64,000 nucleotides of DNA from Thermoanaerobaculia bacterium (GTDB lineage Bacteria > Acidobacteriota > Thermoanaerobaculia > UBA5066), in assembly GCA_963719225.1 (NCBI GenBank), contig CAVRAY010000001.1, forward strand, positions 2,720,001 to 2,784,000, in the 5' to 3' direction. The notes beneath the pieces are model-generated. The model did not search any database. It was not told the origin of the DNA and saw only the letters and a list, made by a program, of their open reading frames with translations. Both the position numbers and the translations under genes were made by a program. Position 1 is the first letter of the stretch; every line of letters begins with the position of its first letter. This document shows, in pieces, positions 10,349 through 63,585 of the stretch.

Positions 10349-10368
10349 GATCTTCTTAGAATAGGAAT
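10349..10368 (+). repeat. Dispersed TTCTTNGAA motif, cluster 1
   Basis: GATCTTCTTAGAATAGGAAT at the coaE/rdgB junction; contains the rdgB TAA stop. Confidence 0.55.
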
Positions 10369-10931
10369 TCGCGCGAGGTTCTCAGGCGTTGGAACGCTCG
10401 CGCCCGGTGCGAGCCGTTGTTCTTCTCTTCTTCGCTCATCTCCGCCCAGGTCCTCGTGTCGCCCCTCGGGATGAAGAGCACGTCCCAGCCGAAGCCGTTC
10501 GTGCCGCGCGGGTGGAGTGCGATGGAGCCGCGGACGCGCCCTTCCGCGACGACGACGTCGCCGGAGTCTTGTCCGGGCCGCGCGACCGCGAGGACGGAAA
10601 CGGCCTCGGCGGACCGGTCGGTGAAGCCGTCCAGCATCTTCGCGAAGGCGTCGCAGCCCGCGGCTCCCGCCGTGATCCATTTCGTCAGTGGGCCGGGGAA
10701 GCCGCCCCAGGCATCGACCGCGAGTCCCGAGTCCTCGACGAGGACCGGGACACGGAGAGCACCCGCCGCGACGATCGCCTTGGCGCGGGCCACCTCGGCG
10801 AAGTCGAGGGACTGGATCTCGGGAATCTCGACGTCCTTCACCGCGACCTCCCGCCCCAGAAACACCGCCGCCTCGCGCGCCTTGCCCGCGTTCGAGGTCA
10901 CGAACATCAGTCCTGCGAGCGCGTCCGTCAC
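10356..10931 (-). CDS. rdgB: Non-canonical purine NTP pyrophosphatase (HAM1/RdgB)
   Basis: GTG start 10931; FVTSNAGK, EDSGL, GFPGP, GFGWD..F, EKN..SHR. Confidence 0.9.
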   Translation of the reverse strand: MTDALAGLMFVTSNAGKAREAAVFLGREVAVKDVEIPEIQSLDFAEVARAKAIVAAGALRVPVLVEDSGLAVDAWGGFPGPLTKWITAGAAGCDAFAKMLDGFTDRSAEAVSVLAVARPGQDSGDVVVAEGRVRGSIALHPRGTNGFGWDVLFIPRGDTRTWAEMSEEEKNNGSHRARAFQRLRTSREFLF

Positions 10932-12547
10932 CGCGGGCGAACCGGCGCGCCCTTCTCGTCGAGCTTCACGCGATACGCTTTCAGGCCTTTCGTGAGGCCC
11001 TTCAGGCGCTGTTCGCCGAGGGGCTCGAACACGAAGAACTCGCCCGCGAGCCGGGCCGTTTCCTCGCCGACGACGATCTCGTTCGGGCCGGCGACGTAGT
11101 CCTCGAGCCGCGCCGCCACGTTCACGGTGTTGCCGAGGACCGTGTAATCCACGCGCCGGTCGGACCCGATGTCGCCGACGACGGCGTGACCCGTATTGAC
11201 GCCCACGCGCACCGCGACTTTTCCCTCCCCGCGCCGGGCGCGCTCCGCGTTCCACGCGGTCAGGCTCTCGATGAGCCTCGCCGCCGCGGCCACCGCCCGG
11301 CGGGGATGGTCGGGCTGGCGGATCGGCGCACCGAAGAAGGCCATCACGGCGTCGCCGATGAACTTGTCGAGCGTCCCGCCCTGCTCGAAGATCGCGTCCG
11401 CCGCGAAGGTGAACACGGTCTCGAGAAAGCGCGACAGCTCTTCCGGAGCCATGCCCTCCGCGGCGGTCGAGAAGCCGACGATGTCCGCGAAGAAGACGCT
11501 CACGTCGCGCGTGCGCACTTTCTCGACGCCGGCGGGACCCTCGGAGACGATCTCCTCGACGACGCCCGGAGAGTGATAGCGCGCGAGACGCTCCCGGATG
11601 CGCTCCTCCTTCGCGACGCGGCCCTGCAGGCGCGCGCGCTCGATCGCGACCGCCGCGAAATTTCCGAGCGCGGTCAGGAGGTCGAGATCGTCCGCGGTGA
11701 AGGTGCCGGTCTTGAGGGGGGTGTCGACGTGAAGGGCGCCGATGACGTTCTCGCGGTTCCACAGCGGGACGCACATGGCGGACCGGATCTGCTGGATGCG
11801 GATCGACTGGCCGGCCTCGAAGCGATCGTCGGTCAGGGCGTCGGACGTCAGCACGGCCACGCGCTCGCGTACGACGGTCTCGACGATCGTGTGGGAGAAC
11901 GTCTCGGTCGACTCCGGTCCCGCGCGCCCTCGCTGGCGCGCGAGCGTCGCGACGAGCCGGCCCCCATCCTCGAGAAGAACGACGACGGCGCGCTCGGCCG
12001 GAAGGAAATCGAAGAGCAGGTCGACGACCTTCGAGAGGATCTGGTCGACGTCCGGCGCCTCGATGAGCGTGCGCGCCACCTGGACGAGGATCTCGAAGAT
12101 CTTTTCGCGCGCCTTTTCGGGCGGGGCCCGCCGCCCGGCGAGCGTTCCCCCGACGTCCGTGATCGCAGCGTCGAGGTTGAAGTCGCGGTTGAAATCGGCG
12201 ATCGAGCGGACGAACGTCGAGCTCGAGTCGCTGATCGACTTCGTGGCGACGCTCCTCGTCGTGGGCTGCTCGCGCACGTGAAGCGTAAAGGTGCCGACGG
12301 AGACGACGTCGTTCACCTTCAGGGGCGACTTGGCCGCGAACTCGCCGTTCACCTTGACGCCGTTCGTCGACTTCAGGTCTTCGACCGTCCAGACCCCCGC
12401 GCGTTCGGACAGGAGCGCATGCCGGCGCGACACGGAGAAGTCGTTCAGGACGATTCCGTTCTCGCTCGAGCGGCCGATGGACACGTCACCGCCGGAGAGT
12501 AGGAAACACCGGGTCTGCCCCTCGACCTCGTAGACGATCTCCAGCAT
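10928..12547 (-). CDS. FHA-GAF-class III adenylate/guanylate cyclase
   Basis: FHA (IGRS..SVSRRHA..STNG), GAF (SAMCVPL..GALHVD..FT.DDL), cyclase (FADIVGFS, DKFIGDAVM, DYTVLGNTVNVAARL). Confidence 0.92.
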   Translation of the reverse strand: MLEIVYEVEGQTRCFLLSGGDVSIGRSSENGIVLNDFSVSRRHALLSERAGVWTVEDLKSTNGVKVNGEFAAKSPLKVNDVVSVGTFTLHVREQPTTRSVATKSISDSSSTFVRSIADFNRDFNLDAAITDVGGTLAGRRAPPEKAREKIFEILVQVARTLIEAPDVDQILSKVVDLLFDFLPAERAVVVLLEDGGRLVATLARQRGRAGPESTETFSHTIVETVVRERVAVLTSDALTDDRFEAGQSIRIQQIRSAMCVPLWNRENVIGALHVDTPLKTGTFTADDLDLLTALGNFAAVAIERARLQGRVAKEERIRERLARYHSPGVVEEIVSEGPAGVEKVRTRDVSVFFADIVGFSTAAEGMAPEELSRFLETVFTFAADAIFEQGGTLDKFIGDAVMAFFGAPIRQPDHPRRAVAAAARLIESLTAWNAERARRGEGKVAVRVGVNTGHAVVGDIGSDRRVDYTVLGNTVNVAARLEDYVAGPNEIVVGEETARLAGEFFVFEPLGEQRLKGLTKGLKAYRVKLDEKGAPVRPR

Positions 12548-12601
12548 CGGCAGGACGGAGTTTATAAGGACCGGGTGAAGCCGCCGGTCCTGCCCGCCCG
12601 T

Positions 12602-13621
12602 TCAGTCGAGCGGAGGCTCGCGCTCTGGCGTTCGGGAAAAGCGCACGCGGACGACCTTCCAGACGGCCACCGGCTGGCCCGCGATCCGTGCCGGCCGGAA
12701 GGTCCATCGCCGCACGGCGTCGCCGGCCGCCTCCGTCATCCCGGCTGGCCCCGGAGAGATCACGTCGATCCGGCCCACGGTGCCGTTCGCCTCCACCACG
12801 ATGCGGAGGATGACTTCGCCGCTCAGATTCATCCGGCGCGCCGCCTCCGGGAACCGGGGATCCACGCGAGTCACGAGGACGGGTGGATCCGCTCCCTCGG
12901 GCAGCGAGGCGAGCGGGGTGCGCGAGAAAGCAGCCGCGGAAATCGGGAATGCCGGCGTCGTCGATACCGCCGGGACTCCGGGCGGCGACATCTGCGCGCC
13001 GGTTCCCCCGGGGCCATCGGAAGGTGCGAGCGGCTGGACCTCCGGCACGATGCCGCGCCCGCCGGGCCCCGACGCAAGGGCCGGGACGGCAGAGGGAAGC
13101 AGGCGTATGGATCGCGCCGGGACGAACGCGAGGATCCTCCCCGCGAGGCGGACGCCGAAGAAATCGTGGTCCGCCAGCACGACATCGACGTTCTCGCCGT
13201 CATCGAGGGTGCCCCACCGCGCCGCGCCGTAGTCGGGGGCGAGCAGGATCGGGCAGGATTCGACCGCGCGCGCCGGCTGGGGAGCGAAAGCCGCGACGGC
13301 GGCCGCTCTCTTTTCGCGCGCCGCACGGTCGGCCATCCGCTCGAAGGAATCGGCGGGAATCCAGACGTCGCGGCCCTCGGCCACGACGTGGACGTGGTCC
13401 CCGAGAGGCTCGCGCACCTTGAGCGCCGCTCCCCGCGGCAGCGTCAGCGCGGCGGCGGCCTTCGGCTCCGCCGAAACGCGTGCCGTCACCCGTTCGAGCG
13501 TCACGACGGCTCGATCGTCGGGCGGCCCGACCGGGGACAGGGCTGCCGGGCGGCTCTTCCGGCAGGCGCCGACGAGCACGAGCACACCGCAGGCGGCAGC
13601 GAGCGCGACCTTGCGCCTCAG
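12602..13621 (-). CDS. Lipoprotein with SH3b-like segments and a C-terminal TonB domain
   Basis: RRKVALAAACGVLVLVGA-C lipobox; Pro/Gly linker; TonB_C (P.FPEAARR..SGEVILRIVVEANG.V...AVRRWTFRPA...GQPV). CTG start inferred. Confidence 0.75.
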   Translation of the reverse strand: MRRKVALAAACGVLVLVGACRKSRPAALSPVGPPDDRAVVTLERVTARVSAEPKAAAALTLPRGAALKVREPLGDHVHVVAEGRDVWIPADSFERMADRAAREKRAAAVAAFAPQPARAVESCPILLAPDYGAARWGTLDDGENVDVVLADHDFFGVRLAGRILAFVPARSIRLLPSAVPALASGPGGRGIVPEVQPLAPSDGPGGTGAQMSPPGVPAVSTTPAFPISAAAFSRTPLASLPEGADPPVLVTRVDPRFPEAARRMNLSGEVILRIVVEANGTVGRIDVISPGPAGMTEAAGDAVRRWTFRPARIAGQPVAVWKVVRVRFSRTPEREPPLD

Positions 13622-14541
13622 AGGCGGCCCATCAGCGTGGCGAGAATCGCCTTCTGGACGTGGAGGCGATTCTCCGCCTCGTCGAAAATGACGGAGCGCG
13701 GCCCGTCGCAGACCTCGGCGGCCACTTCCTCGCCGCGATGCGCGGGGAGGCAATGCATGAACACCGCATCGGGATGAGCTCGGGCGAGAAGCTCGGTCGT
13801 GACGGTCCATCCTGCGAAATCGCGCGCGCGCTTTTGCTGCTCGGCTTCCTGCCCCATCGAAGCCCACACGTCGGTGTAAACGACGTGCGCCCCCTCGACC
13901 GCTTCCTCCTTCGAATGCGTCAGGAGGAGCGTCGTCCCCGCCGCGGCGGCGTCGGCCCGCGCGTTCGCGGTGACGGTCGCGTCCGGCTCGTAGCCCTTCG
14001 GCGTCGCGACGGCCACGTTCACCGAGCACTTCGGCCCTCCGTACATCAACGAGTGCGCCATGTTGTTCCCGTCGCCGACGTACGCGAGCCTGAGAGAGGC
14101 CAGCTTTCCGAACCTCTCGCTCATCGTGAAGTAATCGGCGAGGGCCTGGCAGGGGTGGAGGAGGTCCGTGAGTCCATTGACGACGGGGACCGTCGCGTGG
14201 CGGGCGAGAGACAGGACGGTTTCGTGGGCGAACGTGCGAGCCATGATGCCGTTCACGTAGCGCGAGAGGACGCGGGCCGTGTCGGCGATGGGCTCTCCCC
14301 GCCCGAGCTGGATGTCGCGCGACGAGAGGAACTGCGCGGCGCCCCCGAGCTGCGTCATCCCCGCCTCGAACGAGACGCGCGTCCGCGTGGACGACTTCTC
14401 GAAGATCATCGCGAGGATCTTTCCGCTGAGCGCCGTCCGAAACTCGGCCGGGCGCGCCTTCATCCGCGCGGCGAGGGCGAAGAGCGCCGCGACGTCGGCG
14501 GCGGTCAGGTCGTGGATCGAGACGAGGTCCTTCTCGAGCAT
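13618..14541 (-). CDS. argF: Ornithine carbamoyltransferase
   Basis: FEKSSTRTR, HPCQALAD, GDGNN, DVWASMG, HCLPAHRG. Confidence 0.96.
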   Translation of the reverse strand: MLEKDLVSIHDLTAADVAALFALAARMKARPAEFRTALSGKILAMIFEKSSTRTRVSFEAGMTQLGGAAQFLSSRDIQLGRGEPIADTARVLSRYVNGIMARTFAHETVLSLARHATVPVVNGLTDLLHPCQALADYFTMSERFGKLASLRLAYVGDGNNMAHSLMYGGPKCSVNVAVATPKGYEPDATVTANARADAAAAGTTLLLTHSKEEAVEGAHVVYTDVWASMGQEAEQQKRARDFAGWTVTTELLARAHPDAVFMHCLPAHRGEEVAAEVCDGPRSVIFDEAENRLHVQKAILATLMGRL

Positions 14542-14551
14542 GTCTTCCCTT

Positions 14552-15835
14552 TTACACCGGATCGCGCACGAGCGGCATGGTCATGCAGCGCGGCCCGCCG
14601 CGTGCCCGCGACAGCTCCGGCGCCGAGAGCAGGATCGCGTGCTTGCCGGGCTTTCTCGGGTCGAGCGTCTCTCGTCCCAGCAGGAGATCGTCGTCCGCGA
14701 CGACCGCGTATCCCTCGCGCGCGAGGGACTCGGCCGTGCGCTCGTTTCGGTCGTAGCAGAGGATGATCCCGGGCGCGAGCGCGAAGACGTTTGCCCCGTC
14801 CGTCCACTGCTCGCGCTGCTGGTCGATCGGATCGGAGCCGCCGCAGAGGATGGGAACGAGGTCGATGCCGAGGGCCTTGAGCGCCGACAGGAGGTCCTCC
14901 CTGGTCGTCCACGTGATCTCACGCGCCGTGAGGTCGGCCTCGTACACGTCGGCCTCCTCGGCGCCGCCGGAAAGGATCATCGGCCCGTAGCAGAGACACT
15001 CGCCGGCCGAGATGCGCGTGAACACCGTATCGAGGTGCATCGTCGCGCGCTGGGGAGGAATGGCCACGACGAGGATCTTCCTCACCCGCGAGCCTTCCCG
15101 CTTCAGGGCTTCGGCAAGGCGTTCGATGGTCGTCTTCTCGGTCCGCTCCGAGTAGCCGATCACGAGCACCTCGTCGGAGAGGACGAGGACGTCCCCTCCT
15201 TCGAGCGTGGGCCTCATGCGCGCCCAGGCGAGGTCGCGCCCTTCGCCCGCGGCGAACTCCTGGAACCAGAAGCGCGGCTCCGGTCCGGCGAACCGGGGAT
15301 GCCGGGCGAAGACCGCCCCGGACAGCAGCGGCTCCCGCCAGCGCGCGCGGGTCGCCATCGAACCCCTCACGACGCGGTCTCCCACGACGGTGGCGGGATC
15401 GCGCTGGAAAAACCAGTTCGGGAGCGGCGGCAGGAGGTACAGGGAGTCGAGAGAGTCGGAGATCGTGGGCTCGGCGCGCTCGACTCCTTCCACGAGGCCC
15501 GCCGCGAGCCGGCCGGCGGGAAGGTCGTTCAGCGCGAGGAGGACCGCGGGCGGCCAGGCGAGGAGCCGCCCGAGCTCCGAGAGCACTTCGTTGCGAGCGT
15601 CGGGATCGCGAAGGACTTCCTCGAGGAGCTCCTGGACGTCGATCACCTCGTCCGCCACGAAGCGGAGCACCTGGCGGAACCGCCGGTGCTCCTCGCGCGC
15701 CCGGGCTCCGAACAGGATGTCGTCGAAGAGGAGGTCCTGCATCATCGAGGGCACCATCCGGTCGATCTCGCGACCGGGCTCGTGAACGAGGACCGAGCGC
15801 AGGCGCCCGATCTCGGAGTCGACACGGAGGGTCAT
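14552..15835 (-). CDS. arcA: Arginine deiminase
   Basis: SEIGRLRSVLVHEPG, LLFDDI, PN.FFQRD, EGGD, MHLDTVF, EQWTDGAN, ELSRARGGPRCMT. Confidence 0.95.
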   Translation of the reverse strand: MTLRVDSEIGRLRSVLVHEPGREIDRMVPSMMQDLLFDDILFGARAREEHRRFRQVLRFVADEVIDVQELLEEVLRDPDARNEVLSELGRLLAWPPAVLLALNDLPAGRLAAGLVEGVERAEPTISDSLDSLYLLPPLPNWFFQRDPATVVGDRVVRGSMATRARWREPLLSGAVFARHPRFAGPEPRFWFQEFAAGEGRDLAWARMRPTLEGGDVLVLSDEVLVIGYSERTEKTTIERLAEALKREGSRVRKILVVAIPPQRATMHLDTVFTRISAGECLCYGPMILSGGAEEADVYEADLTAREITWTTREDLLSALKALGIDLVPILCGGSDPIDQQREQWTDGANVFALAPGIILCYDRNERTAESLAREGYAVVADDDLLLGRETLDPRKPGKHAILLSAPELSRARGGPRCMTMPLVRDPV

Positions 15836-15900
15836 GGCGGTCTCGAACGGCGGCTCGGGCCGCCGCCGGGATGCTAACCTGAACGCCGAAGGATCGCGCC

Positions 15901-16062
15901 GTGGAGGATGTCGAGTTCATCGTCTGTCTCAACTGCGACACGCCGTGCTACTTCTTCGAGTACGAAGAGGCGAAGGGGATCACGAGCGCGTTCTGCAACG
16001 TGTGCGGAAACGACGAAACAAAGGAGTTCCGCCTTCCCACGGACGACGAGATCGAGGAGTGA
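15901..16062 (+). CDS. Small acidic zinc-ribbon-like protein (53 aa)
   Basis: Manual translation MEDVEFIVCLNCDTPCYFFEYEEAKGITSAFCNVCGNDETKEFRLPTDDEIEE; two CxxC; AAGGA upstream; ends 5 bp before purB. Confidence 0.8.
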   Translation: MEDVEFIVCLNCDTPCYFFEYEEAKGITSAFCNVCGNDETKEFRLPTDDEIEE

Positions 16063-16067
16063 GCCAG

Positions 16068-17522: not shown

Positions 17523-17690
17523 AGAGAAGAAAAGAAAAAACATTTTGTTTCGGAAATAGAAGAGGAAGAGGGATTTTCTTAGAAGGTGAATGAGCTGGCT
17601 GCCCGCCGCGCAATCGACGCTCAACGGCGCCGCCCGCGCCGCGCCCTATTCACTTTCAAAGAAATCTTCTCGTCTCTTTTTGTCTTGATC
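17521..17690. repeat. Dispersed motif cluster 2: purine tract, convergent motif pair, pyrimidine tract
   Basis: GATTTTCTTAGAAGGTGAAT (17572-17591) and inverted ATTCACTTTCAAAGAAATC (17648-17666). Confidence 0.8.
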
Positions 17691-18341
17691 CTCATCGCCT
17701 GCTCATCACAACCGCGGCCCGCACCGCAGACAACTTCTCTCGCCCCCCCTTCCGCAGAGCGCGGGCTCGCGTCGTGGTACGGGAAGGAATTCGACGGGCT
17801 TCCGACGGCTTCGGGCGAGACGTTCCGGCCCGAGAAGATCTCCGCCGCGCACCGCACGCTGCCGCTCGGCACGGTCGTGGACGTGACGAACGAGAAGAAC
17901 GGAAAGACCGTGCGCGTGAAGATCAACGACCGCGGCCCGTTCGTCGCCGGCCGCATCGTGGACCTTTCGAAGGCAGCCGCGCACGAGATTGCGTCCGTCG
18001 GAGACGGCGTCGTCCCCGTCACGCTTCGCGTCGTGTCGCTCGGAGACAACTTCCGCGTTCGTGCCGGCTCCGACGAGCCGCCCCCCGTGACCGCCGCGAA
18101 CACGGCGACGCGTTCCGAGCCCGGCGCATTCGCCGTGCAGGCCGGCGCGTTCGGAGACGAGGCGAATGCGGTCCGGCTGCGCAACCGACTCGCCGCGCGC
18201 TACCCGAACCCCTTCATCGAGGAATACCAGGGACTCAAGCGCGTGAAGTTCGGTCCTTACCGGACGCGTGAAGAGGCCGATGCCGCGCGGGAATCTCTCG
18301 GCGACATGGGTCTCGCCGGCGTCGTCGTGATCTACCGGTAG
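17586..18341 (+). CDS. rlpA: Septal lytic transglycosylase RlpA (lipoprotein, DPBB plus SPOR)
   Basis: LIA-C lipobox; GLASWYG..F.G..TASGE, AAHRTLP.G, INDRGPF, VQAGAF; start uncertain. Confidence 0.93.
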   Translation: MNELAARRAIDAQRRRPRRALFTFKEIFSSLFVLILIACSSQPRPAPQTTSLAPPSAERGLASWYGKEFDGLPTASGETFRPEKISAAHRTLPLGTVVDVTNEKNGKTVRVKINDRGPFVAGRIVDLSKAAAHEIASVGDGVVPVTLRVVSLGDNFRVRAGSDEPPPVTAANTATRSEPGAFAVQAGAFGDEANAVRLRNRLAARYPNPFIEEYQGLKRVKFGPYRTREEADAARESLGDMGLAGVVVIYR

Positions 18342-18347
18342 ATTCCT

Positions 18348-19469: not shown

Positions 19470-19473
19470 GCGC

Positions 19474-23800: not shown

Positions 23801-23815
23801 GCAACCTTGATTGTC

Positions 23816-24425
23816 ATAGAAAGAAGAGAAGACCGGGGGTTTCTTAGAAAGAAAAGAGAATTGAAGATTTTCTTAGAAAGGAAAGAAGACCAGGAACCTC
23901 TGAGAATGAAAATCGGGGGATCGGAGCGGGGTGCCCAGTGGCGCGGTCCGTCACGACTGCGACGACGTCCGGATCGTTCTCGCAGAGCGGCTCCCGGCCC
24001 GTCGCCGCGCGGCACACCTCGATTTTCGGGTAGAGCTCGCTCCGGTATCCCTCGACGACCACGACGTCACACGAGCCAAGCCCATATTCCCCTTCTAAGA
24101 AAACGGACAGAGCCGGCCGCAGGTTGGCTCCAGCCGCGCCCGTGCTCGGGTCCGAAGCAGAAATCTCCGGTGGCCTCCGGTGCACCGCGCTTCGCCGCCC
24201 CGCGACGAGGATCGCGGGCTCGGCGCCCGCCGCCTTGTGGCGCTGCGAGTCCTTGCCTTCGACGTCGGTCTCGTATTCGTGGTCCGTGTGCTTGAGCGAG
24301 CCGACCCTCAAGCCGTCCTTCACGAGCGCCTCGATGAGCTTCACGGCGACGGTCGTCTTGCCCGATTCGTGGGCGCCGGTGACGAGGAGGACCACCGGGG
24401 ATGAAGATCTCTTGGAAGGGTAAAG
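23816..24425. repeat. Dispersed motif cluster 3
   Basis: TTCTTAGAA at 23841 and 23870 within purine tracts; inverted CCCATATTCCCCTTCTAAGAAAA 24081-24103; GATCTCTTGGAAGGGTAAAG 24406-24425. Confidence 0.8.
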
Positions 24426-25607
24426 GAGGCCGCGTTCGCGCGAGGAAGCGAAACGTGCGATGTCGGCCGGAAAACTCTCGATCCAGGAGTCCAGGCTCGC
24501 GCCTTCATCCACGAGCTGCCGGTATTTCGCGGTGCCGGTCAGGAGGTCGATCGCGGGGACGTCGTCGCGGTACTCGTACGCTTCCGTCCGCCAGCGAAAC
24601 CGGTCCGGGTCCAGGTCGTGAAGGGCTTTCAGCAAGCGCAGGTACGTCTCGTACGGTCGGAACGCGCCGCGGTCCGTCACGTGGACCTGCACGCCGCCGC
24701 AGGTTTTTCCCGCGTGCTTCTGGAACGTTGGCTTGAAGACGTGCGGCCGAAAGACGGCGCCGTGGAGTCCGAGGGCGTTCGCCGCGTCGGCCGCTTCCTC
24801 CGCGTCGAGCCACGGCGCGCCGACGAGCTCGAAGGGCCGCGTCGTGCCGCGCCCCTCCGAGAGATTCGCCCCCTCGACGAGGCAACCGCCGGGATAGACG
24901 AGGGCGGTCTCTCGCGTCGGCATGTTCGGGGACGGGAGGACCCAGGCGGGCGTCTCGGCGACTTCGCGGCGCGAGGGCGCGCGGCCGCCCTTGCGCATCG
25001 GCACGACGGTGAGGTCGCAGCCGAGGCGATACTCGGTGTTCAAGAAGCGCGCGATCTCGCCGGGCGTCATCCCGTGGCGGACCGGCACCGGATACAGGCC
25101 GACGAAGGACAGCAGCCTCTCCTCGGGCAGGTTGCCCTCGAGGATCTCGCCGCCGAGCGGATTCGGCCGGTCGAGAACGACGACGGGAATTCCGCGCGCG
25201 GCGCAGGCCTTCATCATCAGCGCCGTCGTCCACACGAACGTGTAGTAACGGCTGCCCACGTCGGGAAGGTCGGAAACCACGGCGTCGAGATCGCGCAGGT
25301 GCTCCGGCTTCGGAGAGAGCTCTTCGAACGTCGAGCCGTAGAGGGAAACGATCGGCACGCTGCAGGACGCGCAGCCCGCCACCGCTTCCATGTCCTGCGC
25401 CGCACCCCAGAACCCGTGCTCGGGCCCGAAGAGGACGCGCACGTCGTACCCCGCGTCGCGAAGCGCGCGCTCGGCCGGGACGAATGCCGACGTCACCGAG
25501 GCCGCGTTCGCGAGAAGGCCGATCCTCTTGCCGCGAAGAACCTCGCTTGCGCTCTCGCCTTCCGTTAACAGCATGTCGAGACCGGTCTTCACGCGCGAAG
25601 GTTTCAC
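23844..25607 (-). CDS. Fusion of NamZ/DUF1343 exo-beta-N-acetylmuramidase-like domain and MobB P-loop domain
   Basis: N-terminal: LFGPEHG, SLYG, D.PDVGSRYYTF, LDRPNPLGG, RHGMT.GE, PSPNMP, SEGRGTT.PFE. C-terminal: GAHESGKTT, G.RVGSLKH.DH..DVEGKDS.RH..AGA, VVEGY...PKIEV. Confidence 0.88.
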   Translation of the reverse strand: MKPSRVKTGLDMLLTEGESASEVLRGKRIGLLANAASVTSAFVPAERALRDAGYDVRVLFGPEHGFWGAAQDMEAVAGCASCSVPIVSLYGSTFEELSPKPEHLRDLDAVVSDLPDVGSRYYTFVWTTALMMKACAARGIPVVVLDRPNPLGGEILEGNLPEERLLSFVGLYPVPVRHGMTPGEIARFLNTEYRLGCDLTVVPMRKGGRAPSRREVAETPAWVLPSPNMPTRETALVYPGGCLVEGANLSEGRGTTRPFELVGAPWLDAEEAADAANALGLHGAVFRPHVFKPTFQKHAGKTCGGVQVHVTDRGAFRPYETYLRLLKALHDLDPDRFRWRTEAYEYRDDVPAIDLLTGTAKYRQLVDEGASLDSWIESFPADIARFASSRERGLLYPSKRSSSPVVLLVTGAHESGKTTVAVKLIEALVKDGLRVGSLKHTDHEYETDVEGKDSQRHKAAGAEPAILVAGRRSAVHRRPPEISASDPSTGAAGANLRPALSVFLEGEYGLGSCDVVVVEGYRSELYPKIEVCRAATGREPLCENDPDVVAVVTDRATGHPAPIPRFSFSEVPGLLSFLRKSSILFSF

Positions 25608-31056: not shown

Positions 31057-31806
31057 ATGCTACCGCCTTCGCCGGGGCCCGCTCGCATCGCGGTCATCGT
31101 TCCGCTGGCGGCCGGCGAAGCAGCGCCACCGGAGATTTTCTTCGAAAGGGTGCTGGGAGCGGAGAAACCCGTTTCACTCGTCGTGGCGGCGGATTCGGAG
31201 ATTTCTTCGAATGTCCGTGAGGCCTTCGCGCGGGCGGGCGCCCGTGTTCACATCTCTACGGCTCCACGCGGACAGCGCCTGCGCGAGGCCGCTCTCTTCA
31301 CCTTCAAAGATTCTTCTCCCTCGTCCTCGTCTTCCTCCTCCTCTTCACCAGAAACTTCTGTCTTCCTCTTTCTCCACGCCGACACACTTCTGCCTCAGCG
31401 CTGGGAGAAGGCCGTCCGCGACGCGATCGCTTCGGGCGCCGTCGGCGGCGCGTTCCGGCTGTCCTTCTCCGGCGGCGGAGCGCGCATGAGGTGGGTCGCG
31501 TTCTGGGCGAACGCCCGCAGCGCGTTCACACGCGTGCCGTACGGCGACCAGGCTCCCTTCGTACGGAATGACGTCTACGAGAGGCTCGGCGGCCATCCGC
31601 CCTGGCCGCTTCTCGACGACTGGGATTTCGCGAGGAGGCTCAGGAACGAGGGTCGGATAATGATCCTCGAGAACGCGGTCGAAACTTCGCCCCGGCGCTA
31701 TCTCGAGCGTGGCGTCGCCCGCACGATCTGGAAGAACTGGAAGACGCTTTGGCGTTTCCGGAGGGGCGCGACGCCGGAAGAGCTCGCGCGGGAGTACCGG
31801 AGGTAG
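31057..31806 (+). CDS. GT2-family glycosyltransferase (TIGR04283-like), with a poly-Ser insertion
   Basis: FLFLHADT.L, GGAF.L.F, PYGDQ..F, GG.P..PLLDD, TSPRRY; start uncertain. Confidence 0.82.
   Translation: MLPPSPGPARIAVIVPLAAGEAAPPEIFFERVLGAEKPVSLVVAADSEISSNVREAFARAGARVHISTAPRGQRLREAALFTFKDSSPSSSSSSSSSPETSVFLFLHADTLLPQRWEKAVRDAIASGAVGGAFRLSFSGGGARMRWVAFWANARSAFTRVPYGDQAPFVRNDVYERLGGHPPWPLLDDWDFARRLRNEGRIMILENAVETSPRRYLERGVARTIWKNWKTLWRFRRGATPEELAREYRR
31134..31375. repeat. Dispersed motif cluster 4
   Basis: GATTTTCTTCGAAAGGGTG 31134; GATTTCTTCGAATG 31200; inverted TTCACCTTCAAAGATTC 31297-31313, then a pyrimidine tract. Confidence 0.75.
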
Positions 31807-44353: not shown

Positions 44354-45099
44354 CCCGGAAGTGTAGCGGGATTCCTCCGGAACACGGCGAGGAGCTCCAC
44401 GTTTCCTTCCGCCCCGGTGATCGGGGATTCGACTGCTCCGCGGCTGGTGAGAGAGAGCCGCGCGGCGGCCGCCACGACGCGCGCCAGGGCGCGCTCGCGC
44501 ACGGCTTCATCGCGCACGATGCCGCCCCGGCCGACCTCTCGGCGCGTCGCCTCGAACTGCGGCTTGACCAGGACGAGGACGTCGGCCTCGTCCGCGAGAA
44601 GCGGCACCGCCGCGGGCAGAACGAGCGTGAGCGAGATGAACGACAGGTCGGCCACGAGAAGCGAGGGAGCCTCCGGCACCTCGGCCCGGCTCAGGAACCG
44701 CGCGTTCACTTTCTCCCGCAGGACGACGCGCGGGTCGTTCCGAAGGCGGGCGTGGAGCTGGCCGTAGCCCACGTCGACGGCATAAACCCGCGAGGCGCCG
44801 CGTGCAAGGAGGACGTCCGTGAACCCTCCGGTCGACGCGCCCAGGTCGAGACAGATCCGCCCTTTCGGGTCGATCTCGAAACGAGTCAGGCCGAAGTCCA
44901 GCTTCACTCCCCCTCGCGAGACCCAGGGATGCTCGGGCTCCCCGACCGTGATTTCGGCGTCCAGGGTCACGGGCGTTCCGGGCTTGACCCGCTCGTGGCC
45001 GGCGACCGAAACCCGGCCCGCGAGGATCAGCGCCTCGGCCCGGGTCCGCGATTCCGCGAGACCGCGTTCCACGAGCGCGACGTCGAGACGTTTTCTCAG
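44350..45099 (-). CDS. tlyA: TlyA rRNA 2'-O-methyltransferase
   Basis: RKRLDVALVERGL..SR, WVSRGG.KL, LDLGASTGGFTD, AVDVGYGQL, DLSFISL, LVKPQFE, GNVE; CTG start inferred. Confidence 0.95.
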   Translation of the reverse strand: MRKRLDVALVERGLAESRTRAEALILAGRVSVAGHERVKPGTPVTLDAEITVGEPEHPWVSRGGVKLDFGLTRFEIDPKGRICLDLGASTGGFTDVLLARGASRVYAVDVGYGQLHARLRNDPRVVLREKVNARFLSRAEVPEAPSLLVADLSFISLTLVLPAAVPLLADEADVLVLVKPQFEATRREVGRGGIVRDEAVRERALARVVAAAARLSLTSRGAVESPITGAEGNVELLAVFRRNPATLPG

Positions 45100-45468
45100 A
45101 GGGTCACGACGACCTTGAGGACGTCGCCCCCCTGCCGCGCCAGCGCGAAGGCCTCGGCCGCTCGCGCGAGAGGCACGCGGTTCGTCACGACGTCCCGGGC
45201 GCGGACGGCCCCGCGCTCGAGGAGTGTCAGGGCCTCCCGGAAATCCCGCGCGCCGCAAGAGTAGGAAAAGAGCATCGAAAGGTCGCGCAGGTAAGGCAGG
45301 TGCGGCTCGATCGTCCAGGTCTTGCCGGGCTGAATGGGTGAATAGAAGACGACCCGAGCCGCGGGGCCTGCCGCGGCGAGCGCCGCGGCCACGGCGGACT
45401 CCGCAGTCGGCAACACAAAGATGACGTCCGCGCCCGCGCGATCTCCTCTCTTCACCTTCTCAGAAAGG
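45090..45468. repeat. Dispersed motif cluster 5 (weaker)
   Basis: GTTTTCTCAGAGGGT 45090; inverted TTCACCTTCTCAGAAAGG 45451-45468 after a pyrimidine tract. Confidence 0.55.
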
Positions 45469-46112: not shown

Positions 46113-47221
46113 GGGATCAGGGCGACCTTCATCGCGGCTCTCCTCTCGACGAGGTCGAATGCCTCGCGCCACTCGGCGAGCCCCCGCCTCTCTTCGACGA
46201 GCGAGCCCACGGGGATCGCGCCTTCGCAGAGGAGGGCGAGGGCCGTGTCGACGTCGCGCGGCGTGTAGTGGAAAGCGCCTGTGATCGACACCTCGCGATA
46301 GTGCACCGCGTACGCGTCCACGCTCACGCGCGCCCCCTCCTGCATCCCGGCGAAGAGCACCACCGTGCCTCCATTCTCCGCGAGCGGGGGGAGCGCCGAG
46401 ATCACCTCGGGATCGCCGGTCGTGTCGAGGATCAATGAAAATCTTGCTCCCGAGCCGCGCGTGCCTTCGATGCGCAACGGCATCGGAGGATTTTCTTTGA
46501 AGGTGAATATGGGTGGCGGAGTGCCGGCGCCCGGGTCGCGCGACGAGCCCGCGATGCGCGCCACCTCCGCATTCATCCTTTCGAAGAAAGCGAGTCTCTC
46601 CGGTTTCCTTCCGGCGACGACGACCCGGCGCCCCGCGCCGCTGGTCCTCTCTCTTCCTTCTCCTCTTTCTTTCCCCCTCAAAAGAAAAAACATCATCGCG
46701 GCGATCGGGCCGGTCCCCACGACGAGAACGTCCCCGCCGTCTGCGGCGTTGGTTCTGCTCAGCGCGTGGACGACACTGGCCAGAGGATCCAGCAGCGCGG
46801 CCGCCTCGTCGGAGAGGTCCGGCGGGATTCTCCTGAGGCCGCTCGTCACGATGCGCTCCGGGACGAGCAGAAAATCCGCGAAGGCGCCGAAGAGAGGCCT
46901 CTCGAATGCGGTCGCGCAGAGATTCTCCCGGCCCCCGCGGCAGTCGTCGCAGCTCCCGCAGGGACCCGACACGGCCGAGGTGACGCGCTCGCCGGGCGAA
47001 AAGGGCGTTCCCGGGCCCGTCTCCTCGACGACGCCCGCGAACTCGTGCCCGAGGGTGAGCGGAAACGGAAACTTCGGATGCCCGCGCTTCGCGAGCTTGA
47101 AGTCGGTCGCGCACGTGAGCGCGACGCGAATGCGCACGAGGGCCTCGCCCGCCGCCGGACGGGGCGTCGCGACCTCGCGGAGCGCGAGCCGCTCCGGCCC
47201 CTCCGAGACGAGAGCCCGCAT
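46109..47221 (-). CDS. Zinc-dependent alcohol/polyol dehydrogenase (MDR) with low-complexity insertions
   Basis: ATG 47221; TCATDFK, GHEFAG, CGSCDDC..GRENLC, GTGPI. Confidence 0.88.
   Translation of the reverse strand: MRALVSEGPERLALREVATPRPAAGEALVRIRVALTCATDFKLAKRGHPKFPFPLTLGHEFAGVVEETGPGTPFSPGERVTSAVSGPCGSCDDCRGGRENLCATAFERPLFGAFADFLLVPERIVTSGLRRIPPDLSDEAAALLDPLASVVHALSRTNAADGGDVLVVGTGPIAAMMFFLLRGKERGEGRERTSGAGRRVVVAGRKPERLAFFERMNAEVARIAGSSRDPGAGTPPPIFTFKENPPMPLRIEGTRGSGARFSLILDTTGDPEVISALPPLAENGGTVVLFAGMQEGARVSVDAYAVHYREVSITGAFHYTPRDVDTALALLCEGAIPVGSLVEERRGLAEWREAFDLVERRAAMKVALIP
46489..46693. repeat. Dispersed motif cluster 6
   Basis: GATTTTCTTTGAAGGTGAATATGGG 46489-46513; inverted ATTCATCCTTTCGAAGAAAG 46571-46590; pyrimidine tract, then TTCCCCCTCAAAAGAAAAAACAT 46671-46693. 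Confidence 0.8.
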
Positions 47222-53916: not shown

Positions 53917-53950
53917 GCGTGGCACTCCAGGTCGGATATTCTGCCATTGC

Positions 53951-55426: not shown

Positions 55427-55427
55427 G

Positions 55428-56858: not shown

Positions 56859-56951
56859 TTCCTCAGCACCGTCACCTTTCCGGTCTCGGCCGAGGGCGCT
56901 AGACACGCGGGAAACCGGTCGTTCCGCATACCGCGGAGTTAAGGTGGTGGT

Positions 56952-58598: not shown

Positions 58599-58838
58599 CC
58601 TCGAATGGTAGTGCGGCCATTTCCTTTCTCACGCGTTTTGTCGAACGCTAATAGGACGTAAGAGCTGCACGTAACCCACGTCCCAATGGATCACGCTTCT
58701 CCCAAACGCCGTGGCTTTGTCATCTACCGAAGGGTTTCCCGAATCACTTGCACTCCTCGTCCGGAGGTAAACCACCGGTGTCTACATCTAGCGCCGCATC
58801 GGGTGAGCGTCGGTCACCCCGGAGCCTCATGGACACGC

Positions 58839-59984
58839 TCAGCGTGGGCCGCGCGGTCCGCCGGGCGCGTCCACGTACGCCGCGAGGGTCTTGGCGAAGA
58901 GCTCCGAGCCCTCGGAAGAGAAGTGAACGGGATCCAGGAAGTGCGCGTCGGTGAAGGCCCCCTCGCGAAACGGATCCAGGAACATGGCAAGCCCTTCGTC
59001 CCCGAGCTTCTTCGCGACGGCGTTGTAGCGGGCGAGACCCGCGAGATACCCCTTCGCCGTGAGTCCGGGTGTCCAGCCCTCCAGCCAGGCGAGATCCGTC
59101 TTCTCGAACCCGGCGCGCACGAGCGCGACCTGGGCCACGAGCAGCGTCCGCGCCCCGCGCGCGCTCGCGACGGCGATCGTGGAGCGCAGGTTGCGCTCGT
59201 AGACGGCGACGGCCTCGGCGGGGATGTCGTCGCGCCTCGGCCCGCCTTTCCATTCGTACGAGGGCGCATAGCCTTCGGCGGCCGGCATCGGGCCTTGTGA
59301 CTTCAGCCGGCCCCGCAACCACTCCACGAAGACGAGCCGGGAGACGAGACGCACGGGCACGGGGGCCACACCCGTCACCCGCGGAAGGAGCTCCGCATGC
59401 CCGACGGAGTAGTCGGCCGCGAACGGAACGTGTCCCGCAGGCTGAAGGTCGTTCACGCCCGAGTACACGACGACGAGGTCCGGCTGAAGATCGAGATCGC
59501 GAATCTCCAGCGACACGAGGCTCTCGAGGCTCGTCCAGCCGGAGAATCCCGCGTTCACGACGTCGGCGCGGGGACGGAGGAGCGTTCCGAGCCGCGCGGG
59601 CCAGGTCGCCGCGTCGTCCGGCGCGAGCAGGTCGAACGTCGTCGAGCCGCCCTCGCACACGACGCGATATGTGCCCACGGGCTTCGGCACCGGGACGTCG
59701 CGCACGTTCGTGACGCGCTGGCCGCGTGCGTTGAAATGCACGACGTGGCCCGCCGCTTCGAGAACGGCGTTCGGTCGGCCCACCACGATGAGCTGGGGAT
59801 GCGGCCGGTACGCCTTGCCGATCTTCTCCACGAACTTCGTGTACGCCTCGACCTGCGTCTCGGGCCAGGAGCCGGTCTTGACGCGAAGCGCGGCCCGGCA
59901 TCCCCCCTCGAGCACCACAAACAGCACCGCCGCGATCGCGAGCGGGACGAGGAGATTCGACGCGAGCGCGCGGAGCGGCTTCAC
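58839..59984 (-). CDS. Membrane-anchored SGNH/GDSL hydrolase
   Basis: GTG 59984; GGSTTF (block I), NAG..G, G.NDL, DPVHF. Confidence 0.85.
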   Translation of the reverse strand: MKPLRALASNLLVPLAIAAVLFVVLEGGCRAALRVKTGSWPETQVEAYTKFVEKIGKAYRPHPQLIVVGRPNAVLEAAGHVVHFNARGQRVTNVRDVPVPKPVGTYRVVCEGGSTTFDLLAPDDAATWPARLGTLLRPRADVVNAGFSGWTSLESLVSLEIRDLDLQPDLVVVYSGVNDLQPAGHVPFAADYSVGHAELLPRVTGVAPVPVRLVSRLVFVEWLRGRLKSQGPMPAAEGYAPSYEWKGGPRRDDIPAEAVAVYERNLRSTIAVASARGARTLLVAQVALVRAGFEKTDLAWLEGWTPGLTAKGYLAGLARYNAVAKKLGDEGLAMFLDPFREGAFTDAHFLDPVHFSSEGSELFAKTLAAYVDAPGGPRGPR

Positions 59985-60862
59985 GCGGCCTTCCTCGCGA
60001 CGACGCGGATCGCCAGAACCGAGAGCTCCTCGACGGGCAGCTTTCGGAACCGTGCCACGAACCGCTCGGGGCGAACGACGGAGGCGTCGAGGACGATGAC
60101 AGGCTCCATACTCTCGACCGCGAGACCCGCGCCTTCGAAGAGACCTTTCCACTCCGAGCTTCGCAGCCGGTTGCAGAAGACCTCGCCCGAAAACCCGCCG
60201 TCGAGGATCGTCCGGAGCGAGACCTCTCCATAGCGGGTCGCCCGACGCTCCCACACTTCGTCCTCGAGCTCGAGGAATTGGAGTGGATCTTCGGAGCCGT
60301 GATGCTTCAGGTCGATCTCGTGGACGGCCAGGCCGCCGGGCACGAGGACGCGAGCGATCTCGATCACCGTGCCCTCGGGGTTCGGGACGTGCTCGAGCGC
60401 CGCGACCGAGTAGACGAGATCGAAACTCCCGGAGGAAAACGGCAGCTCTTCCGACGACACGGCACTCCGGTAATCCACCGACGAAAGGAGGGTGGCGGCA
60501 GATGGAAACGACGACACCGACGGAAAGTCGACGCGCCCCGGCTGGGGCTCGGCGAAGGGCCGCCACCACGCAAAGCCCTCCACGGCGAGAAGGTAATCGC
60601 GGAGCGCTTCGTAGAACCCGTCCGACAGCGGCGGAAGCGGCGCCACGTCGACTCCCGCCGCGCGCGCACCCGAGGCCGCGAAGGCGAAGAGAGCTCCGAG
60701 GTTCGCGCCGGGGCCGATCTCGAGAACGGAACGCGGAAACGGGAGGCCATGGCGGCGCGCGAGGGCGTCCGTCTCGGCGAAGACGCGATGCGCGTAGAAA
60801 AGCGAGTCGTTTGCTTCCGCCCGCTCACGGACCGCCCGGACGAGCTCGGCGTCGAGCGTCAC
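59981..60862 (-). CDS. Class I SAM-dependent methyltransferase
   Basis: GTG 60862; VLEIGPG, LPF..GSFDLVYS.AALEHV, RVL.PGG...H.IDL. Confidence 0.85.
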   Translation of the reverse strand: MTLDAELVRAVRERAEANDSLFYAHRVFAETDALARRHGLPFPRSVLEIGPGANLGALFAFAASGARAAGVDVAPLPPLSDGFYEALRDYLLAVEGFAWWRPFAEPQPGRVDFPSVSSFPSAATLLSSVDYRSAVSSEELPFSSGSFDLVYSVAALEHVPNPEGTVIEIARVLVPGGLAVHEIDLKHHGSEDPLQFLELEDEVWERRATRYGEVSLRTILDGGFSGEVFCNRLRSSEWKGLFEGAGLAVESMEPVIVLDASVVRPERFVARFRKLPVEELSVLAIRVVARKAA

Positions 60863-61455
60863 GCCTTCGCCGCGAGGTGGCGCGAGCCCGGCGCGGCGAT
60901 CGGCTCGCCCCGCGCGCAGAGCGGGCAGGACGCGGGCTCCCACGCGGGAACCTCGAGCGCGAGGAGCGCGCGGAACGGAACGCCGTCGACGCCGGACGTC
61001 TTCTCGGACGCGGCCCTCCGGTCGACGATCGCCCCGCACACGACCGGCTCGGCGCCGGAGCCGCGAAGCACGGCGAGGACCTCGCGCGTGGACTTCCCCG
61101 TCGTCACGACGTCCTCGACGACCGCCACACGCTCGCCGGCCTCGAGGGCGAACCCGCGCCGGAGCGCGAAGACTCCCTCCACGCGCTCCGTGAAGATCGC
61201 GCGAACCGAGAGGCCGCGGCCCGTCTCGTGGCCGATGATCACGCCTCCCATGGCGGGCGAGACGACGACGGACGGGTGGAACGGGGCGAGCAGCGACGCG
61301 AGCCCAGCGCCGAGCGCGCCCGCGCGGTCGGGCCATTGGAGCACTTTCGCGCACTGCAGATACGCCTCGGAGTGGAGCCCGGACGAGAGCTTGAAGTGGC
61401 CGTGGAGGAGCGCCCCGGCTTCCGAGAAATGGCGGCGAACCTCGTCCTCGGTCAC
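60859..61455 (-). CDS. pyrE: Orotate phosphoribosyltransferase
   Basis: GHF.LSSG.HS..Y.QC, PAMGG, VVEDVVTTG.S, IVDR. Confidence 0.96.
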   Translation of the reverse strand: MTEDEVRRHFSEAGALLHGHFKLSSGLHSEAYLQCAKVLQWPDRAGALGAGLASLLAPFHPSVVVSPAMGGVIIGHETGRGLSVRAIFTERVEGVFALRRGFALEAGERVAVVEDVVTTGKSTREVLAVLRGSGAEPVVCGAIVDRRAASEKTSGVDGVPFRALLALEVPAWEPASCPLCARGEPIAAPGSRHLAAKA

Positions 61456-62897
61456 GGCGACTCCCGGCCTTCCGAGGGCTCGCGGTCCCGGCGCAGGCCG
61501 TACCGGTCGATCTTCTTGTAGAGGTTCGAGCGTGGCGTGTCGATGGCCTCAGCCGTGCGCGTCACGTTCCCGGCGTTTTCCGCGAGCTTCGCGACGAGAA
61601 AGAGCTTCTCCGTCTCGTCCTGAAACTCCTGGAGCGTGGGGATCGAAAGGATCTTCTCCCACGTACCGGCGCTCGCGGCGGCCGCGGCCGCGTCGACCAC
61701 GCGCCCGCCCCGCACGACGACCGCGGGCGGCGCGTCCTCCACCCGCGGATAACTTCCCGAATCCACGTTCTGAGCGTCGAGGACGTCGGCGTCCGACATG
61801 ATCATGAGGCGCTCCACGTGGTTCTTCAGCTCGCGCACGTTCCCGGGCCAGGGGCGCGCCGCGAGCGCCTCGAGGGCGGTGTCGGTGAACCGCTTCGGCC
61901 GGTAGTTGTTCGTGCGGGCGAAGAGCTCCGCGAAGTGGTTGACGAGGACGGGGACGTCCTCGGGACGGTCGGCGAGCGTGGGCGTCCTCAGGACGAGGAC
62001 GTTGAGGCGGTAATAGAGATCCTCGCGGAACTTTCCATGCGCGATGAGCACCGTGAGGTCGCGGTTCGTCGCGGCGACGACGCGCACCTTGACCTTCACG
62101 ACGCGCGGGCTGCCCACGGGCTCGACTTCGCCCTCCTGCAGGACGCGGAGCACCTTCGCCTGCGCGGAGGCGGACATGTCTCCCACCTCGTCGAGAAAGA
62201 TCGTGCCGCCGTCCGCTTCCACGAACTTGCCCGTCTGCTTGCGGTCCGCGCCCGTGAACGAGCCGCGCTCGTGGCCGAAGAGCTCCGATTCGATGAGACT
62301 GTCCGGGATGGCGGCGCAGTTCACCTGGACGAACGGACCCGCCTTCACGAGCGAGCCCTCGTGGATGGCCCGCGCGACGAGCTCCTTGCCCGTCCCGCTC
62401 GGCCCCACGATGAGGACCGTCGCGGGCGTCGGCGCGGCCTTCGCGACGTCGGCGAGCAGGCGGCGGATCGCCTCGCTGTTCCCGACGATGCGCGTGATGC
62501 CGAGGCGCGACTTCAGCTCGAGGTTCTCGCGCACGAGGCGCGTCGAATCGAGGACGCGCCGGAGCGCGTTCAGGACGTGCTCGGACGAGAGGGGCTTCTC
62601 GAGGAAGTCCTCGGCCCCGGCGTGCACGGCGTCCATCGCCGTCTTCACGTCGCCGTGGCCCGAGATGACGATCACGGGCGTCGCGATCCCGCGCGCGCGC
62701 AGCTTCGCGAGCGTCTCGAGCCCGTCCTGGCCGGGCATCTTGATGTCGAGGAGCACGGCGTCGTGATCCGGCGCCTCGGAGACCGCGCTCGCTCCCGAGG
62801 CGACCGCGGTGACCTCGTATCCCTCTTCCGAGAGCAGCGTCCGGAGCGATTCGCGGATGTCGGGTTCGTCGTCGCAGACGAGGATGCGTCGCGCCAT
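61452..62897 (-). CDS. Sigma54-dependent response regulator (NtrC/NtrX-like: REC-AAA+-HTH)
   Basis: DDE, LLDIKMP, GPSGTGKE, ESELFGHERGSFTGA, FLDEVGD, FREDLYYRL, WPGNVREL, Fis-type HTH. Confidence 0.95.
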   Translation of the reverse strand: MARRILVCDDEPDIRESLRTLLSEEGYEVTAVASGASAVSEAPDHDAVLLDIKMPGQDGLETLAKLRARGIATPVIVISGHGDVKTAMDAVHAGAEDFLEKPLSSEHVLNALRRVLDSTRLVRENLELKSRLGITRIVGNSEAIRRLLADVAKAAPTPATVLIVGPSGTGKELVARAIHEGSLVKAGPFVQVNCAAIPDSLIESELFGHERGSFTGADRKQTGKFVEADGGTIFLDEVGDMSASAQAKVLRVLQEGEVEPVGSPRVVKVKVRVVAATNRDLTVLIAHGKFREDLYYRLNVLVLRTPTLADRPEDVPVLVNHFAELFARTNNYRPKRFTDTALEALAARPWPGNVRELKNHVERLMIMSDADVLDAQNVDSGSYPRVEDAPPAVVVRGGRVVDAAAAAASAGTWEKILSIPTLQEFQDETEKLFLVAKLAENAGNVTRTAEAIDTPRSNLYKKIDRYGLRRDREPSEGRESP

Positions 62898-62907
62898 CCC
62901 GGCGATC

Positions 62908-63585
62908 CTAGCAGCCCGATGTAAGGGCGCGCCGCGCGTCGGCGAGGGCCGCGGCGGTTTCGGCCATTCCCCGCTCGAGGTTCTCCTGGGAGCGAAGAGA
63001 AAGAGATTCTTCGAATGCAGAAATGGCGGCTCGGAGGTGCGCCTCTCGCCTGTCGGGCTCTGCCTCGGCCAGCTTTCGGAGGAGATTTCCCAGGGCGTGA
63101 AGCGTCACCCCTCGCGCGACGCGGCGCGAGGCGTCGCGAACCGTGAGGGACTGCTCGTAACAGGAAAGCGACTCCCTGAGGTCGTCCTCCGAGCGCGCGA
63201 GATTCTGGAGGGCGTTGCCGCGGTTGTGAAAAAGGCGTGCCCACGCCTCCAGGTCTTCGCTTCCGTAACCGGCGTCGAGAGATTCTTCGAAGAGAAGGAG
63301 GGAGGAGGAGAGGTTTTCGGCCGGCCCACGCGAGCCGAAGAACACCGCGAGGTTGTGCAGGAACCTCGCCTCTTCCCCCTTCGAAGAAAAAACCACCGTT
63401 CCCCTCATGTCCCACAGGTCGCTCGCGAGGGTCGTCGCCAAGGCACAAGATTCCGTCGTCCCCTCGTCCCTCAGGTGCTCCTGGAGCACGTACCAGTCGC
63501 TCAACGCGGCACGGGCGTCCTCCGCGAACCGCCGGCGGAAGAAGGCGACGAGGTCGCGGGTCGGAGGGAGATCGATGCCCGTCAG
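62908..63585 (-). CDS. Hypothetical TPR-like helical protein
   Basis: Repeated A..LHNL / HNRGNAL / TLHALG.L helices; frame open to CTG 63585 overlapping the cysK stop (ORF track starts at TTG 63504). Confidence 0.68.
   Translation of the reverse strand: MTGIDLPPTRDLVAFFRRRFAEDARAALSDWYVLQEHLRDEGTTESCALATTLASDLWDMRGTVVFSSKGEEARFLHNLAVFFGSRGPAENLSSSLLLFEESLDAGYGSEDLEAWARLFHNRGNALQNLARSEDDLRESLSCYEQSLTVRDASRRVARGVTLHALGNLLRKLAEAEPDRREAHLRAAISAFEESLSLRSQENLERGMAETAAALADARRALTSGC
62994..63393. repeat. Dispersed motif cluster 7
   Basis: GAGATTCTTCGAATG 63003; GAGATTCTTCGAAGAGAAGG 63279 plus purine tract; inverted TTCCCCCTTCGAAGAAAAAAC 63373-63393. Confidence 0.72.

Follow-up and report, generated by a model that had tools for sequence, protein, structure and literature searches.

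The window analysed here is a 64,000-nucleotide stretch of DNA from a Thermoanaerobaculia bacterium of the Acidobacteriota (GenBank assembly GCA_963719225.1, contig CAVRAY010000001.1, positions 2,720,001 to 2,784,000 of the forward strand), whose genome is referred to below as G000. It carries copies of an oriented DNA site of about 20 bp that recurs along the chromosome in facing pairs and is enriched in the half of the chromosome surrounding a dif-like site. On balance, we think it probable that these pairs are read as double-stranded DNA by a putative lineage-specific protein that organises or marks the terminus half. The parts of this reading are not equally firm: readout of the double-stranded pair by a putative protein is likely in its own right, while a chromosome-organising job for that protein is the supposition towards which we lean.

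The motif and its facing pairs

The site has the consensus (purines)-R-W-T-T-T-C-T-T-N-G-A-A-G-G-K-R-A-A-(purines), in which a TTC-TTN-GAAGG core lies within a purine-rich tract of ~45 bp; the purine bias spans about −26 to +20 around the core. Invariance reaches 99% at C−2, G+2 and A+3, position +1 is free, and position-specific conservation of this kind is as expected for readout by a protein. An identical logo was obtained for G174, a genome of the sister genus g11.

A chance origin of the motif is excluded by Markov and codon-shuffle controls. Matches with up to three mismatches number 314 genome-wide, against 11 in one order-5 Markov copy of contig C1. An iterated position weight matrix (PWM), trained on G000 itself, the genome being scored, gave 898 sites, of which 817 were on C1 compared with 47 in the Markov control (PWM ≥15); the count less the control puts the true genomic copies at about 850. 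Against a codon-shuffled background, the comparison proposed in a preliminary description of this DNA, 534 coding sites scored ≥18 vs 59–78 in four within-gene synonymous-codon shuffles, and convergent pairs within coding sequences fell from 168 to 2–3. An assembly artefact is very unlikely, since exact pairs are present in all 29 separately assembled genomes of the genus (29/29).

Within the window, 16 sites reach a PWM score of 15 or more, and they lie at the clusters of the preliminary description. Its copy identities (21/23 and 18/21 positions, and a 14-mer found exactly at 17530 and 46680) were reproduced, and the stretches near 38 and 53–55 kb that it called empty contain no site ≥15. 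The 6–7 kb rhythm that it had proposed for the clusters does not survive: 349 gaps have a mean of 6.6 kb, a median of 3.8 kb and a standard deviation of 7.9 kb, which is a clumped distribution.

The arrangement described for the window, with forward copies on the left and inverted copies on the right, holds genome-wide. Among 218 two-site clusters, 202 are facing and 3 divergent, and the 146 apparently single sites have a weak convergent partner in 35 cases and a divergent one in 2. Pair distances have a floor near 68 bp and a tail to 300 bp. The preferred spacing is 76 bp: considering distances of 70–100 bp, ~44 of 94 locus clusters fall at 74–78 bp, these clusters having been grouped from 228 high-GC loci of other genomes and metagenomes after 10 low-GC loci among 238 pattern matches had been removed beforehand as probable chance. 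Outer tandem sites prefer distances of 21–45 and 81–92 bp, and the spacers are GC-rich (72 vs 67%). A sharp peak at 93 bp proved to consist of paralogous Ser/Thr kinases in 15 of 17 cases, which were taken out before spacing was examined for periodicity.

Terminus bias and phylogenetic range

The dif-like site of G000 is at C1:2,037,575, where the GC skew peaks, and two pairs flank it; dnaA, gidA and parS are at C2:326–334 kb, the canonical parS being separate from the motif, single and near dnaA. Within 1.1 Mb of dif the density is 24.4 sites per 100 kb, compared with 10.0 beyond (~2.4-fold), and across 42 blocks of 100 kb the density declines away from dif (Spearman −0.77). The gradient persists in 5/5 codon-score quintiles and in 4/4 strata of conservation. 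There is no polarity with respect to replication, as 344 sites point towards dif and 365 away from it. A bias towards dif was also found in G231, where the 1.64 Mb around dif contain 84 matches and another 2.03 Mb contain 50 (51 vs 25 per Mb), and in G174, with 32 matches in 1.35 Mb vs 32 in ~3.05 Mb (24 vs 10.5 per Mb).

The motif is restricted to two genera. A one-mismatch search with a 16-mer returned 90–305 matches in 24/24 genomes of the genus and 0–2 in 16 genomes of other families. Across 300 genomes of the class, only the genus (16/16 genomes, 87–294 matches) and G174 (48 matches) rose clearly above background; G082 had 6 matches and all others ≤9, where the top counts came from low-GC genomes whose controls matched equally often, and G025 and G196 enter these class counts only as background rows. 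G082 and G174 share the same motif and its facing pairs at lower density. When all species genomes were scanned with the pair pattern, 79 of the 80 loci listed, from at least 117, carried titles of Acidobacteriota or Thermoanaerobaculia. Viral contigs gave 2 exact pair matches and 34 single 18-mer matches, the latter all in loci of ≤46% GC; we read these as chance, and the one record followed up contained no repeats.

In G166 (g13), no site ≥12 was found in 197 kb around the ParB2 gene described below. A de novo search of 200 kb each of G166 and G033 for another paired motif found none in G166, by a weak method that missed the known pairs of G082 and G174. As a separate observation, G033 (family f2) has intergenic convergent arrays of heptamer and octamer repeats that form long hairpins and are unrelated to the motif.

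Sites in the window and in genes

The sites of the window are listed below with their PWM scores. The four convergent-pair distances of the preliminary description (79, 87, 97 and 100 bp centre to centre) were recovered.

10350–10370, forward strand: single site (22.6) lying over the 3' end of a gene of the Ham1 family
17573–17593, forward: left-hand member of a convergent pair (34.1) in the interval between purB and an RlpA/SPOR gene, with a purine tract ahead of it
17646–17666, reverse: right site of the same purB–rlpA pair (31.6), 79 bp centre to centre
23810–23915, forward: run of sites at the 3' end of the NamZ–MobB open reading frame, strong at 23838–23858 and 23867–23887, weak at 23810 and 23895
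24084–24104, reverse: right site (32.0) within the MobB domain, at a distance of 223 bp from the 23874 site
24406–24426, forward: unpaired site (23.1)
31135–31220, forward: two sites (31135–31155 and 31200–31220) outside called genes
31294–31314, reverse: right site (19.5), 100 bp from the 31207 site
45448–45468, reverse: site (20.1) in a zinc dehydrogenase gene, with only a weak forward match (9.1) at 45090–45110
46490–46510, forward: site (31.6) in an in-frame insertion of the zinc dehydrogenase that is absent from out-of-family orthologues
46571–46591, reverse: partner site (22.3), 87 bp away, overwriting a dehydrogenase helix (FFERMN), with a weak third site at 46669–46689
63004–63024, forward: outer site (20.8) in a hypothetical open reading frame
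63280–63300, forward: left site of a pair (22.0)
63371–63391, reverse: right site of that pair (28.8), with a pair distance of 97 bp

By dicodon gene calls made for this analysis, called genes hold 559 of 774 sites (72%), 284 in sense and 275 in antisense orientation and in all frames. The remaining 215 are intergenic, which is 2.6 times the intergenic share of the genome, with no strong preference among intergenic classes (9.7 per 10 kb in tandem, 8.7 in convergent and 5.9 in divergent intervals). Site density drops as protein conservation rises, and the largest site-free gaps in the dense central domain are accessory islands.

Sites are kept at a cost to proteins. In the zinc dehydrogenase of the window, both sites are present at a score ≥13 in 17 of 25 genus loci, and two of the genus loci bear an additional ~84-bp unit. 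In a subfamily of Ser/Thr kinases, both sites were made by substitution, with no insertion or deletion between the VAIK-like and HPNI motifs, and the pair is followed by a serine run encoded by the flanking tract. Nine paralogues of this kind form a tandem cluster at G000:C1:2293328-2319827, each with a 93-bp pair and most with a poly-serine run; by motif, the G000 genome has 56 kinases.

Retention can also be followed between species. The intervals C2:600–800 kb and C2:7–223 kb are an inverted, ~77%-identical duplicate that includes two tmRNAs, indicating a second co-assembled species. When the two species co-assembled in C2 are compared (78% DNA identity), 12 of 15 aligned sites have a counterpart no more than 3 bp away; a further 11 sites are in unaligned DNA. 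Of 13 syntenic genus loci, 7 have the purB–rlpA pair (at 79–82 bp), 2 have it in collapsed form and in 4 it is reduced or absent; none of 16 other family loci has it. The purB–rlpA spacer is ~60–150 bp longer where the pair is present. In G012 and G014 the pair collapsed because its spacer was lost, and its two cores are now almost fused.

Two further features of the window may be mentioned. A single open reading frame at 23844–25607 joins NamZ (an exo-N-acetylmuramidase) to MobB, and may be a fusion or two overlapping genes. At the gathering score, the Rfam families matched in the window were 5 tRNAs only, with no match at the motif.

Known systems, candidate readers and rival explanations

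To our knowledge, few chromosome-wide sequence codes are known in bacteria (parS, matS, NBS, KOPS, Chi, uptake sequences and HIP1), and we know of none that acts in facing pairs whose spacing has a lower limit and an optimum of 76 bp. KOPS, Chi and Ter are oriented, purine-rich chromosome signals, whereas the present sites orient to each other and not to dif, without replichore polarity. REP, BIME and REPIN elements, with their RAYT transposases, are inverted doublets with spacers of the order of 70–110 bp. They resemble our pairs in being inverted doublets, but the sites here are mostly intragenic, with unrelated spacers, and RAYT (Y1_Tnp, PF01797) was found in 0/4 genus genomes (G000, G016, G012 and G001; 97–99% complete) vs 14/14 other genomes searched; the Y1/IS200-type transposases number 1–10 in each of these 14 relatives. 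The matching terminal inverted repeats and shared internal sequence that distinguish miniature inverted-repeat transposable elements (MITEs) are likewise absent here.

A parallel may be drawn with matS, read by MatP in E. coli, since in both cases a repeated site is linked to the terminus region and is read by a protein, established there and putative here. It is described as a 13-bp site with 23 repeats in 800 kb (PMC3330122). The matS site is short, palindromic and confined to Ter, whereas the ~850 sites described here are asymmetric, form facing pairs with a 76-bp optimum, are enriched 2.4-fold over ~2.2 Mb and are present up to the origin. HIP1 of cyanobacteria is a hyper-abundant, lineage-specific motif of no established function (PMC5861425), but is an 8-bp palindrome and not an oriented site of ~20–45 bp in spaced pairs. 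The sites of ParB and Noc, parS and NBS, share the TTTC...GAA half-site look (PMC7383237), and G000 has a second ParB beside dif; however, the core spacer is 3 here vs 4, the flanks are unequal, the sites are paired, and the 16-bp palindrome TTTC-N4-GAAA is not formed. A description of the motif, including its motif strings (two unrelated matches), was not found in the literature searched, which was mostly open-access and excluded supplements. The motif is lineage-restricted and falls outside every named family for which membership was tested; as far as that literature goes, it is categorically new.

The second parA–parB pair (parA2–parB2) adjoins the dif-like site (G000:C1:2037575-2039524), an arrangement that, to within ~1 kb, recurs at 29 of the 30 loci compared from across the class. 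A ParB match was obtained in 44/44 class genomes searched, and all but one of these genomes have a strong full-length match to ParB2. ParB2 retains the ParB_N and HTH domains and is without the RxxG code, which has been tied to parS (PMC7383237). No account of a dif-linked parA2–parB2 was found in the literature searched, and it may represent an undescribed terminus-segregation system. That ParB2 reads the motif, its CTP clamp loading at facing parS-like half-sites (TTTC-N3-GAA vs TTTC-N4-GAAA) while ParA segregates the terminus half, is an improbable reading, for which the position beside dif, the retained domains with the missing parS code, and a motif that is terminus-biased and flanks dif can be adduced. 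Nevertheless, ParB2 is class-wide, motif-free genomes such as G166 included, and the core spacing of the motif is one base shorter than that of parS or NBS. At the four specificity positions of ParB (Caulobacter 173/179/184/201; PMC7383237), ParB2 has R/A/R/R in the genus and R/A/R/K in the motif-bearing g11, while motif-free lineages have R/T/R/K (g13 and g14) or mostly R/A/(D or E)/R (f2); in these patterns the residue code does not follow the motif cleanly, nor does position 201, which was assigned by way of a gapped alignment, go with it.

The main rival to an organising role is a new DNA-uptake signal, in which a competence receptor would prefer two facing sites ~76 bp apart, for example by threading a bent-back loop, and biased uptake with recombination would spread the pairs. 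We regard it as unlikely. Like the uptake sequences of Pasteurellaceae (USS) and Neisseriaceae (DUS), which occur in hundreds of copies, at permissive coding positions and rarely in recent acquisitions (PMC2817400), the ~850 sites are largely within genes, prefer poorly conserved ones and are absent from accessory islands. Density differs widely between related lineages (6 matches in G082, 48 in G174 and 87–305 in the genus), and drive would explain the retention of each single pair. ComEC is present in 5/5 genomes tested, but these include the motif-free G166 and G033. Known uptake signals work as single sites, and where they form inverted pairs these are mostly terminators (10.1101/2025.10.24.684340), whereas the pairs here are 68–300 bp apart, show no co-evolution as hairpins and are terminus-biased; drive would offer no obvious reason for the 2.4-fold bias. 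A Chi-like self-marking for repair or defence, in which an end-processing or surveillance enzyme would spare or process pair-bearing DNA, is quite improbable. It would suit the accessory islands in the longest site-free gaps of the dense domain and the chance nature of the two exact pair matches in viral contigs; on the other hand, Chi has the replication polarity that is lacking here, gaps of 40–107 kb and depletion at the origin are a poor fit to a self tag, and no enzyme was identified.

Explanations at the level of single strands or mobile elements fare worse. Hairpins between the arms, acting as RNA terminators or cruciforms, are largely refuted and very improbable. Three of four window pairs do fold at z of about −3 against shuffles, but this signal is that of the shared consensus alone: real pairs beat chimeras in 68–70 of 136 cases or fewer, as RNA or DNA, with no folding advantage (z 0.03 ± 0.09, n = 136). 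Similarity between the arms does not exceed that of shuffled partners (p = 0.10), the spacers are unstructured (z −0.08), and the short spacings that would be best for folding are avoided. The reading with the faintest claim of all is that the pairs are what remains of a MITE or REP/REPIN family mobilised by a transposase. Some pairs do sit in insertions, as in the dehydrogenase and in the longer purB–rlpA spacers, but among 271 spacers homology is limited to the 15 kinase paralogues and a few groups of 2–4 members, 72% of sites are in genes, RAYT is missing and the kinase pair arose without insertion or deletion. Of the two readings offered in the preliminary description, the decayed miniature inverted-repeat element is thus unsupported, its difficulties being the non-homologous spacers, the arms no more alike than shuffled ones and the indel-free kinase pair. 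The other, paired sites for a sequence-recognising or nucleoid protein, agrees with every test run: the convergent orientation, the lower limit on spacing, the conservation at particular positions, the retention at orthologous places and the bias to the terminus. The preliminary interpretation as a whole is partly supported.

Several observations weigh against the organising role that we favour. The gradient is one of enrichment and not of confinement, and sites occur 5 kb from dnaA. In four relatives (G231, G174, G013 and G019) the trend is less strong or uneven: G174 is patchy, with low density 130–400 kb from dif and one bin inflated by kinase paralogues; the trend is weak in G013 (the 1.38 Mb contig with dif has 23 matches and another ~3 Mb has 32, or 17 vs ~11 per Mb); and contig C2 of G019 is mixed, with 21 matches at 0–0.7 Mb, 13 at 0.7–1.75 Mb (which includes parS) and 16 at 1.75–2.42 Mb. 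The bin edges for these relatives were set after the data had been seen, and relatives are kin and not independent. G000 is itself 6% contaminated, and its contig C2 is chimeric, so that its origin-side geometry is approximate. A helical period of 10–11 bp in the spacing, which a rigid loop should show, was not significant in eight settings (p 0.18–0.47); with the kinases included, the best period was 8.2 (p = 0.03). Pairs are dispensable at single loci, as the purB–rlpA pair is collapsed or missing in 6 of 13 syntenic loci, and the bias to poorly conserved genes together with the absence from accessory islands is also predicted by uptake-sequence drive. Finally, none of five reader candidates profiled, namely ParB2 and four proteins without a Pfam match, tracks the motif, each being present in motif-free or missing from motif-rich genomes. 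This hunt was made by eye on proteins of up to 420 residues, covering ~125 basic, codon-biased G000 proteins and ~360 proteins shared with 1.8 Mb (~40%) of the 4.4 Mb G174; 19 proteins were scanned against Pfam and four were profiled.

Two side observations belong here. In G019:C2, the distance from dif (108 kb) to parS (846 kb) is only 0.74 Mb, which denotes a large rearrangement or a misjoin. An order-wide protein without a Pfam match is encoded at G000:C1:1875377-1876159; its match is split in G000 and G016, and a motif site lies within the G000 gene.

In the organising role proposed here, a two-fold symmetric protein or complex would engage both facing sites. DNA folded back between them would align the sites for a dimer, 76 bp being the preferred geometry, and the reader would clamp or bridge each pair, helping to organise or mark the terminus half. 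The reader might close a short hairpin or plectoneme tip with the GC-rich spacer inside it, or load at one site and then slide towards its partner. Because the distances trail off to 300 bp without phasing, sliding or flexible capture is favoured over a rigid loop. Chromatin positioned by histones found no support, as PF00808, the sole histone family searched, was present in 0/5 genomes and no periodic WW signal was seen by eye.

A bolder version can be put forward only tentatively. The motif could be a recently evolved chromosome-architecture code, in which ~400 facing pairs are clamped into a ~76-bp hairpin, or act as boundaries, in convergent orientation, to a machine that slides or extrudes loops, and distinguish the terminus half from the origin half, where SMC is loaded. 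Just as tentatively, the pressure behind it would have been strong enough to rewrite kinase and dehydrogenase domains, with three stages of spread in sparse G082, intermediate G174 and the dense genus. Such pairs would be a bacterial analogue of convergent CTCF sites.

The motif displays a visible evolutionary series, overwrites conserved proteins and offers a precise bait for DAP-seq or pull-down. If its job is architectural, it would constitute a new way of differentiating the terminus half of a chromosome; if uptake is the true explanation, it would be a new geometry of self-recognition. Either outcome would test why single copies of such abundant motifs persist.

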